From Leucoraja ocellata (Eukaryota): 64,000 bases of DNA. Positions within the stretch are counted from its first letter, which is position 1. Each line of letters opens with the position of its first letter. Location: NCBI GenBank assembly GCA_036785375.1, contig JAWMAR010000079.1, forward strand, positions 1,116,001 to 1,180,000, read 5' to 3'. The translations under genes were made by a program, and so were the position numbers. Under the pieces are notes generated by a model. It was not told where the DNA came from, made no database searches, and saw nothing but the letters and a program-made list of their open reading frames with translations. Shown here one piece after another: positions 3,100 to 3,949 of this stretch.

Positions 3100-3400
3100 T
3101 GCAGAAGGGTTCCGACCCGAAATGTCACCTATCCATGTTCTACAGAGACGCTGTCTGACCCCGACTCCGAAGCTGCTGAGTTATTCCAGCACTTTGTGTC
3201 TTTTGTTTTTAAGATAACATCAGCAGTTCCTTGTATAGGAGGGAACTGCAGACGCCGGTTTAAACCGAAAATAGACACACACAGCTGGAGTAACGCAGCG
3301 GGACAGGCAACATCAAAGATCAGAGAGCAGCTCTATGATCTTTGGGCAGCATCTCTGGAGAAAAGGAATGAGCGACGGTTCGGGTCGAGACCCTTCGTTA
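3100..3400. mobile_element. Two oppositely oriented Penelope-derived terminal repeat units
   Basis: Plus copy (GAAGGGTTCCGACCCGAAATGTCACC...GCTGAGTTATTCCAGCACTTTGTGTC) followed by a minus copy (GGAACTGCAGA...GACACA...GCTGGAGTAAC...TTCGGGTCGAGACCCTTC). Confidence 0.75.
3314..3344. mobile_element. 31-bp near-perfect palindromic mini DNA transposon with 8-bp TSD
   Basis: CAAAGATCAGAGAGCAGCTCTATGATCTTTG flanked by GGCAACAT (3306-3313) and GGCAGCAT (3345-3352). Other copies of the host repeat carry the empty site GGACAGGCAGCATCTCTGGAG (e.g. ~52329, ~59080). Confidence 0.8.
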
Positions 3401-3616
3401 GTCGTTATACCGACTGATCACGTCTGTTACACCCAGACTACAGTAATGCTTTGGAAGTAACACTGGGTGCAAGTGGAATGACTCTTAAATGAATAACTCT
3501 CAGAAACAAAATCCCACCGAGGCTCGGCTGATACAAAGGCTCTGAAAGTAGTGGGAAAGAGGGTCAGTTGTCACCAAAGATACTAGAGGAGCTGTCACTC
3601 TCGGCACAGCCAGGAT

Positions 3617-3654
3617 CAAAGATCTTATAGCAGAGCTCTGCTATAAGATCTTTG
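3617..3654. mobile_element. 38-bp perfect palindromic mini DNA transposon with 8-bp TSD
   Basis: CAAAGATCTTATAGCAGAG|CTCTGCTATAAGATCTTTG (19+19, perfect) flanked by the exact direct repeat GCCAGGAT (3609-3616, 3655-3662). Confidence 0.85.
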
Positions 3655-3949
3655 GCCAGGATCAATGCATTGAGCTGTGTTGCCCTGCCTTCCAGCGGCG
3701 CTTTGAATTGCGCGCCATCGGTTGTATCAACCTGTGATTGTTACTTGCAACTGTTGCAAATAGAGTCATGTGAGAAGCCAGCCAGTCAGAAGCGGCAAGT
3801 GCGGATGCAGGAAAACCTCACGGAGGTCACTTTCCTGTTAGCCGTTTCATTTTGTAGTACAGAATGAGGAATTCAACTTACAACCAAAAGGCATAATACC
3901 ACGTGGTGGCCAACCAACCACAGAGACCGAATGAAAAGCTCGTGCAGCA

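Follow-up and report, generated by a model that had tools for sequence, protein, structure and literature searches.

Short palindromes between 8-bp duplications in the genome of Leucoraja ocellata are very probably excision footprints of P-superfamily transposons

Two short palindromes in a 64,000-nt stretch of the L. ocellata assembly (the window, i.e. the whole stretch of DNA that was analysed) are very probably germline excision footprints (scars) of P-superfamily transposons and, very likely, not micro-transposons. Footprints of this kind are known from P excision but take a new form here, with a different, apparently motif-set overhang and thousands of germline records. The P excision reading was adopted because the scars share their ends with long elements, these elements encode a P transposase, the arms end at nt 20, or at nt 18 in one subfamily, the junctions show an excess of microhomology, and insertions and one-armed forms occur.

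Both palindromes and their 8-bp duplications were found in place, as described in the first-pass annotation (Table 1). Scar 2 is a perfect 19 + 19 palindrome between exact copies of GCCAGGAT, and scar 1 is a near-palindrome flanked by GGCAACAT and GGCAGCAT. A third, one-armed scar was preceded by GTTGTCAC and followed by TGTCAC. The scar lengths resolve into 20 + 20 − 2 (scar 2), 17 + 15 − 1 (scar 1) and 18 + 0 with 2 nt of target lost (scar 3). Every window scar has a parent end type (TTATAGCAGAGC, CATAGAGC or CCTAGAGGAGC). The pattern CAAAGATC-N5-35-GATCTTTG was present at 2 places in the window, against 0 matches over 100 shuffled versions.

Scar 1 interrupts a multicopy repeat which we take to be SINE-like. 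The empty site that had been noted before in other copies was confirmed: a single 8-mer was present in 5/5 other aligned copies, so that scar 1 accounts for 31 extra bp and an additional target copy. Opposed copies at 3104–3204 and 3236–3396 form a long imperfect inverted repeat, and many further copies lie elsewhere in the window. In another copy of the repeat, L190:84–105 (contig 1), the 8-bp site interrupted by scar 1 carries a different, 22-bp scar of the other end subfamily; the repeat therefore likely holds a P target hotspot.

All three window scars sit 300–640 bp upstream of a tRNA-Lys gene. tRNA genes as a general target were rejected, as 0 tRNA genes were found in 59 independent scar loci. 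A contig of another sample (best-matching species label; matching 3348–3640) and a contig of organism A (matching 3363–3638 with 5 differences) both contain scar 3 together with the left portion of scar 2, which are therefore older than that split. In sequencing runs covering the window scars, the scar state was shared and not polymorphic. The presence/absence comparison suggested at first pass thus returned scars common to a related organism, which give no sign of present-day excision.

Table 1. Positions of scars, target copies and context features in the window.
Feature	Position	Strand	Remarks
Multicopy host repeat interrupted by scar 1	3236..3396	+	bounds approximate
Scar 1, left 8-bp target duplication	3306..3313		
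Scar 1, 31 bp	3314..3344		17-nt left and 15-nt right arm, 1-nt overlap; CAAAGATCATAGAGC-type end, one T>G
Scar 1, right 8-bp target duplication	3345..3352		1 mismatch
Scar 3, left target copy	3567..3574		
Scar 3, arm of 18 nt, short-end subfamily, one C>A	3575..3592	+	stops at GAGC; other arm lost
Scar 3, right target copy, last 6 nt only	3593..3598		
Scar 2, left 8-bp target duplication	3609..3616		
Scar 2, 38 bp	3617..3654		20 + 20-nt arms, 2-nt GC overlap
Scar 2, right 8-bp target duplication	3655..3662		exact
tRNA-Lys(CTT) gene, single, context only	3950..4022	+	CpG-richer stretch holding all three scars

For a genome-wide count, the 3.44-Gb assembly was searched with the scar pattern at a gap of 5–35 nt, which gave 5,844 matches against 13 for the reversed control. 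Search patterns demanded arms of at least 8 nt, and scars below 21 bp are uncounted. An 8-bp duplication with at most 2 mismatches flanked 48 of the 50 contig-1 matches listed (32 exact), against 0/550 in the offset control. Once copies sharing their flanks had been merged, 40 independent sites remained, whose scars fall into 13 length classes (21–40 bp) and 36 different sequences. Scaling by 40/50 gives roughly 4,700 independent sites genome-wide, an estimate from one contig that cross-contig passenger families lower and that misses short, one-armed and mutated scars. Over the 40 contig-1 sites, the target copies of a scar differ at 14/320 positions, and many scars are therefore old.

The symmetrised target logo of 84 sites (a sample biased by the search patterns) has the commonest letters G-T-C-N-N-G-A-C and the form S-T-Y-N-N-R-A-S, close to the fly P core GTCCGGAC given in the excerpt of PMC2577343. 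GC and CpG climb toward the scar site (59 independent scar loci). CpG o/e was 0.59 within 200 bp of a scar, 0.44 at 1–1.5 kb and 0.35 in the window, and CpG-island-like flanks were found at 36% of scar loci versus 3%. This rise fits the promoter preference reported for P elements (PMC7776569, in excerpt). Some scars are carried as passengers in larger repeats and were amplified with identical flanks (L118, L126, L129, L131, L132; L160–L166; L116/L124/L125/L128/L134/L136/L137), and some passenger scars sit inside P-family non-autonomous elements.

The same ends run on as AAGAT... into long elements (3,852 matches genome-wide), and the parental terminal repeat extends over at least 25 bp. Complete TSD-flanked elements with these ends measure 391–7,535 bp, non-autonomous ones 391–1,318 bp. 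A search with PF21787 gave 137 matches among 150 candidates scored, many of them 98–100% alike and with long open frames. The near-identical intact copies suggest a recently active P family. Ends were read in 10-kb stretches, the first 30 transposase loci being too short to include them. Five elements of 5.1–6.9 kb (L098, L102, L103, L104, L111) have both terminal inverted repeats, matching 8-bp duplications and an internal ORF. PF21787, PF21788 and PF21789 (split RNase H with GTP-binding insertion) were detected in 4/4 ORFs. The long elements with the same termini that the first-pass annotation had proposed to look for were thus present at ~5–7 kb, and its guess of a P/THAP9-like enzyme gained support from the P transposase inside them.

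The L098 frame matched the Drosophila P transposase structure PDB 6P5A with an E value of 1.7e-41. Catalytic residues D230/D303/E531 of 6P5A align with D290/D380/E608 of the L098 frame, and all three are present. As counted on the alignment, K385, V401, S409, F443, D444, N447 and D528 are retained and K400 is replaced by R, and most of the GTP-contact residues are conserved. A THAP exon lies upstream of the ORF; PF05485 scored above cut-off in 2/2 exon pieces, with the beginning of the domain not found. The domain set (THAP, split RNase H, GTP-binding) is thus that of the Drosophila P transposase, whereas the terminal sequence is unrelated to that of Drosophila P and comprises ~25–28 bp, with a direct repeat (AAGAT at nt 21–25, identical to terminal nt 3–7) and a variable outer segment of 18–20 nt. 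Among 102 long ends (motif-filtered), the distance to AAGAT was 20, 19 and 18 nt in 86, 12 and 4 cases, respectively. The TTATAGCAGAGC end type occurs at both element ends. The CATAGAGC type, to which the parent of scar 1 belongs, was found at 299 ends, one of which lies ahead of transposase sequence.

An intact young P element (L103:662–7559) is inserted in a histone H4 gene, downstream of the TATA box and ahead of the start codon. L076:802–8336 consists of two nested elements, an inner one of 5,887 bp (18-type ends) and an outer one of 7,535 bp (20-type ends). Separate 8-bp duplications flank the two, and no P transposase match was found inside. An abundant non-autonomous family of ~400 bp (L023, L037, L040–L045) has one 19-type end. 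The 37-bp scar predicted for this family was absent among the first 100 matches listed of arms stopping at nt 20, and the family may therefore excise poorly.

Arm length has a sharp limit. At the 40 contig-1 sites, 80/80 arms were 20 nt or shorter, and the scar pattern gave only 576 matches at 41–71 bp. Arms matching the main end through nt 20 and then diverging numbered 1,310 (both arms of symmetric scars and passengers included), against 19 reaching nt 22 or beyond, of which 8 are readable as 20 + 10 and 5 run into the element body. The 24 double-full-arm joins comprised 18 blunt 20 + 20 joins, 1 with an extra A, 5 with inserts of 3–5 nt and none of 21 + 21. In the subfamily with a 2-nt shorter outer segment, arms stop at 18 with products of 34 bp (18 + 18 − 2) and 36 bp (18 + 18), and only 2 of 100 matches listed (of 180) continue with AA. 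GAGC is the stop on both sides of one passenger-amplified join between an 18-type and a 20-type end, and in one case the arm of a 19-type end breaks off at nt 19. Since the stop moves from 20 to 18 with the shorter end, the presumed nick would follow the motif GAGC^AAGAT and not a fixed distance. Placement by this motif is probable. By analogy with flies, where the cut lies 17 bases inside, the length limit likely marks the cut site, here ~20 bases inside each end.

For analysis of the junctions, overlaps were compared with simulated blunt joins under our own uniform model. An overlap of at least 2 nt was present in 25/34 non-insertion joins, against 30% in the simulation (p = 2e-7); 2 of the 6 joins classed as insertions were mutated arms. 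The common sizes of 38, 33, 28 and 22 bp correspond to self-complementary joins at GC and TATA/CTATAG. Longer forms contain templated insertions and iterated copies of nearby repeat sequence. Scars with a AGAGCGAAGC arm mostly have a TATAGC arm opposite, matching the two unequal ends of parent L017, and this asymmetric end pair is kept in scars of 28, 33, reciprocal 33, 38 and 40 bp. At one host-repeat site, at least 8 different junctions, one-armed ones included, were found between the same target copies. They are best explained by repeated excision, and forms of 33, 44, 47 and 54 bp at this site may have arisen by slippage of one scar (33 and 44 differ by one 11-bp unit). From its terminus, the host is presumably a hAT-like element, with the site near its end. 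For detection of one site in full and scar states, 15 matches at the multi-junction site were inspected, 0 of which were full-length, and two multicopy full-element sites gave 0 matches to a scar. That neither search turned up a site in both states counts against the P excision reading.

In the fly, P 3′ ends are cut at the termini and the other strand 17 nt inside; within the complex, the transferred strand is looped out and base-paired to the 5′ portion of its non-transferred partner, and the review describes how and in what order P ends are cleaved as unknown (PMC7776569, in excerpt). On this model, a widely staggered cut by the transposase at each end would leave behind, in the donor DNA, as many as 20 nt of either terminal repeat. 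If the enzyme acts as fly P does, both donor ends would then bear 3′ tails that terminate in GAGC. Cellular end joining would seal the tails to each other, with an 8-bp target copy on either side, often with 2–6-nt overlaps and at times after templated synthesis. The stop at nt 20 would represent a nick on the non-transferred strand, as in Drosophila P biochemistry, and the new 5′ end AAGAT could by analogy pair with the identical terminal nt 3–7, with a loop of free length. From the arm lengths, we infer GTP-dependent long staggered cleavage by the parent transposase. The scar would be a dead end, as the same cut would free two single strands that overlap scarcely, if at all, and lack the inner repeat and the THAP site. 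The junction signature favours, by a modest degree, polymerase theta as the activity behind much of the joining. A joint reading can be formulated, which we regard as evenly balanced between right and wrong: a still-active P family would nick at GAGC^AAGAT 18–20 nt in, at a site set by sequence and not by a measured distance of 17 nt, the AAGAT 5′ end would pair with the looped-back transferred strand in the manner of the fly transpososome, and thousands of scars, which may outnumber the surviving elements, would record polymerase-theta joining and germline open chromatin.

The first-pass annotation had offered two readings, mobile hairpin micro-transposons and footprints left by gap repair after excision; the footprint reading is supported, the micro-transposon reading is not, and gap repair is probably the wrong pathway. 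It is very improbable that a P transposase moved the palindromes in trans, whether all of them or only some, for example the 33- and 38-mers. Identical 33-mers and 38-mers do occur at many unrelated 8-bp duplications, as had been predicted for independent mobility and as counts against the P excision reading, yet this does not discriminate between the readings, because repeated joining at the same GC microhomology gives identical products. The forms that recur are precisely those which microhomology joining of the parent ends yields, and only such simple joins are repeated at unrelated sites; the recurring complex junction types share flanks in 4/4 cases and are passengers in larger repeats, so that a diagnostic junction at unrelated sites, as in a MITE family, was not found. 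The range of lengths and sequences at the contig-1 sites likewise differs from MITE-type homogeneity and corresponds to what had been expected of excision scars. One-armed forms exist, and the inner repeat bound by the helix-turn-helix of the fly enzyme (PMC7776569, in excerpt) is absent from the scars.

Extreme internal deletion with no defined long overhang, arising when synthesis-dependent gap repair aborts or long inverted repeats collapse, would account for the matches at 41–71 bp and for the 5/19 long-arm cases that carry element-body sequence. The latter count against the main reading, and aborted gap repair therefore occurs at a low rate. As a general origin it is highly improbable: a smooth tail of arm lengths would be predicted, whereas a cliff was observed, blunt joins are exactly 20 + 20 or 18 + 18, and no more than 8 cases made use of AAGAT, a 5-nt microhomology just past nt 20. 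The abrupt limit at nt 20 argues for the joining of cut overhangs rather than for aborted synthesis. Footprints of hAT or another superfamily with 8-bp duplications that shares these ends would also agree with the target logo, which fits hAT-like targets as well. This origin is extremely improbable, as elements with these ends and matching duplications encode P transposase, and hAT excision leaves flank-derived hairpin scars without element sequence.

The P excision reading was compared with known systems, the papers being cited from excerpts. In the fly P{wa} assay, junctions are built alike: between two 8-bp copies of the target stand a portion of the left and a portion of the right repeat, which meet at microhomology, bluntly or around a templated insert; the tails measure 17 nt, and the overhang limits arm length (PMC2895639). 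The limit differs, being 20 nt here (18 in one subfamily, 19 once), and so does the origin, since those junctions are assay products, whereas the present scars are natural, germline-fixed and number thousands. Zebrafish Pdre2/THAP9 is likewise a P-like vertebrate element with 8-bp duplications, but has 13-bp ends and at least 50 copies (PMC10983969). For a vertebrate P/THAP9 enzyme, Pdre2 included, no cleavage offset was found in the P/THAP9 literature as far as the excerpts extend (PMC10983969 for Pdre2). The present family differs from Pdre2 in that its ends number in the thousands, it includes nearly identical copies whose long frames are open, and its scars can be read as a record. In another organism, C. 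elegans, the scars are not element-like palindromes, because the Tc1/mariner elements studied in its germline reportedly have overhangs of 2 nt. Polymerase-theta repair of transposon breaks has been described in that germline, with heritable end-joining signatures in natural genomes as in the present case (PMC4490562). The literature search, to which Repbase and Dfam were external, listed no paper on this family or on natural P scars in a vertebrate, and the family may already be catalogued in these databases.

The scars predict a nucleotide-exact nick site that moves with the motif, and intact transposase frames are available for a test. Thousands of heritable repair products from one defined break are usable for the study of germline end joining. 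For annotation, tiny TSD-flanked palindromes can mimic a MITE family although they are dead scars. In L278 and L284 (~1450–1570), a scar is combined with an inverted duplication of flank and target, i.e. a complex repair product. L266:41–143 contains two tandem scars, with a third copy of the same 8-bp target between them.
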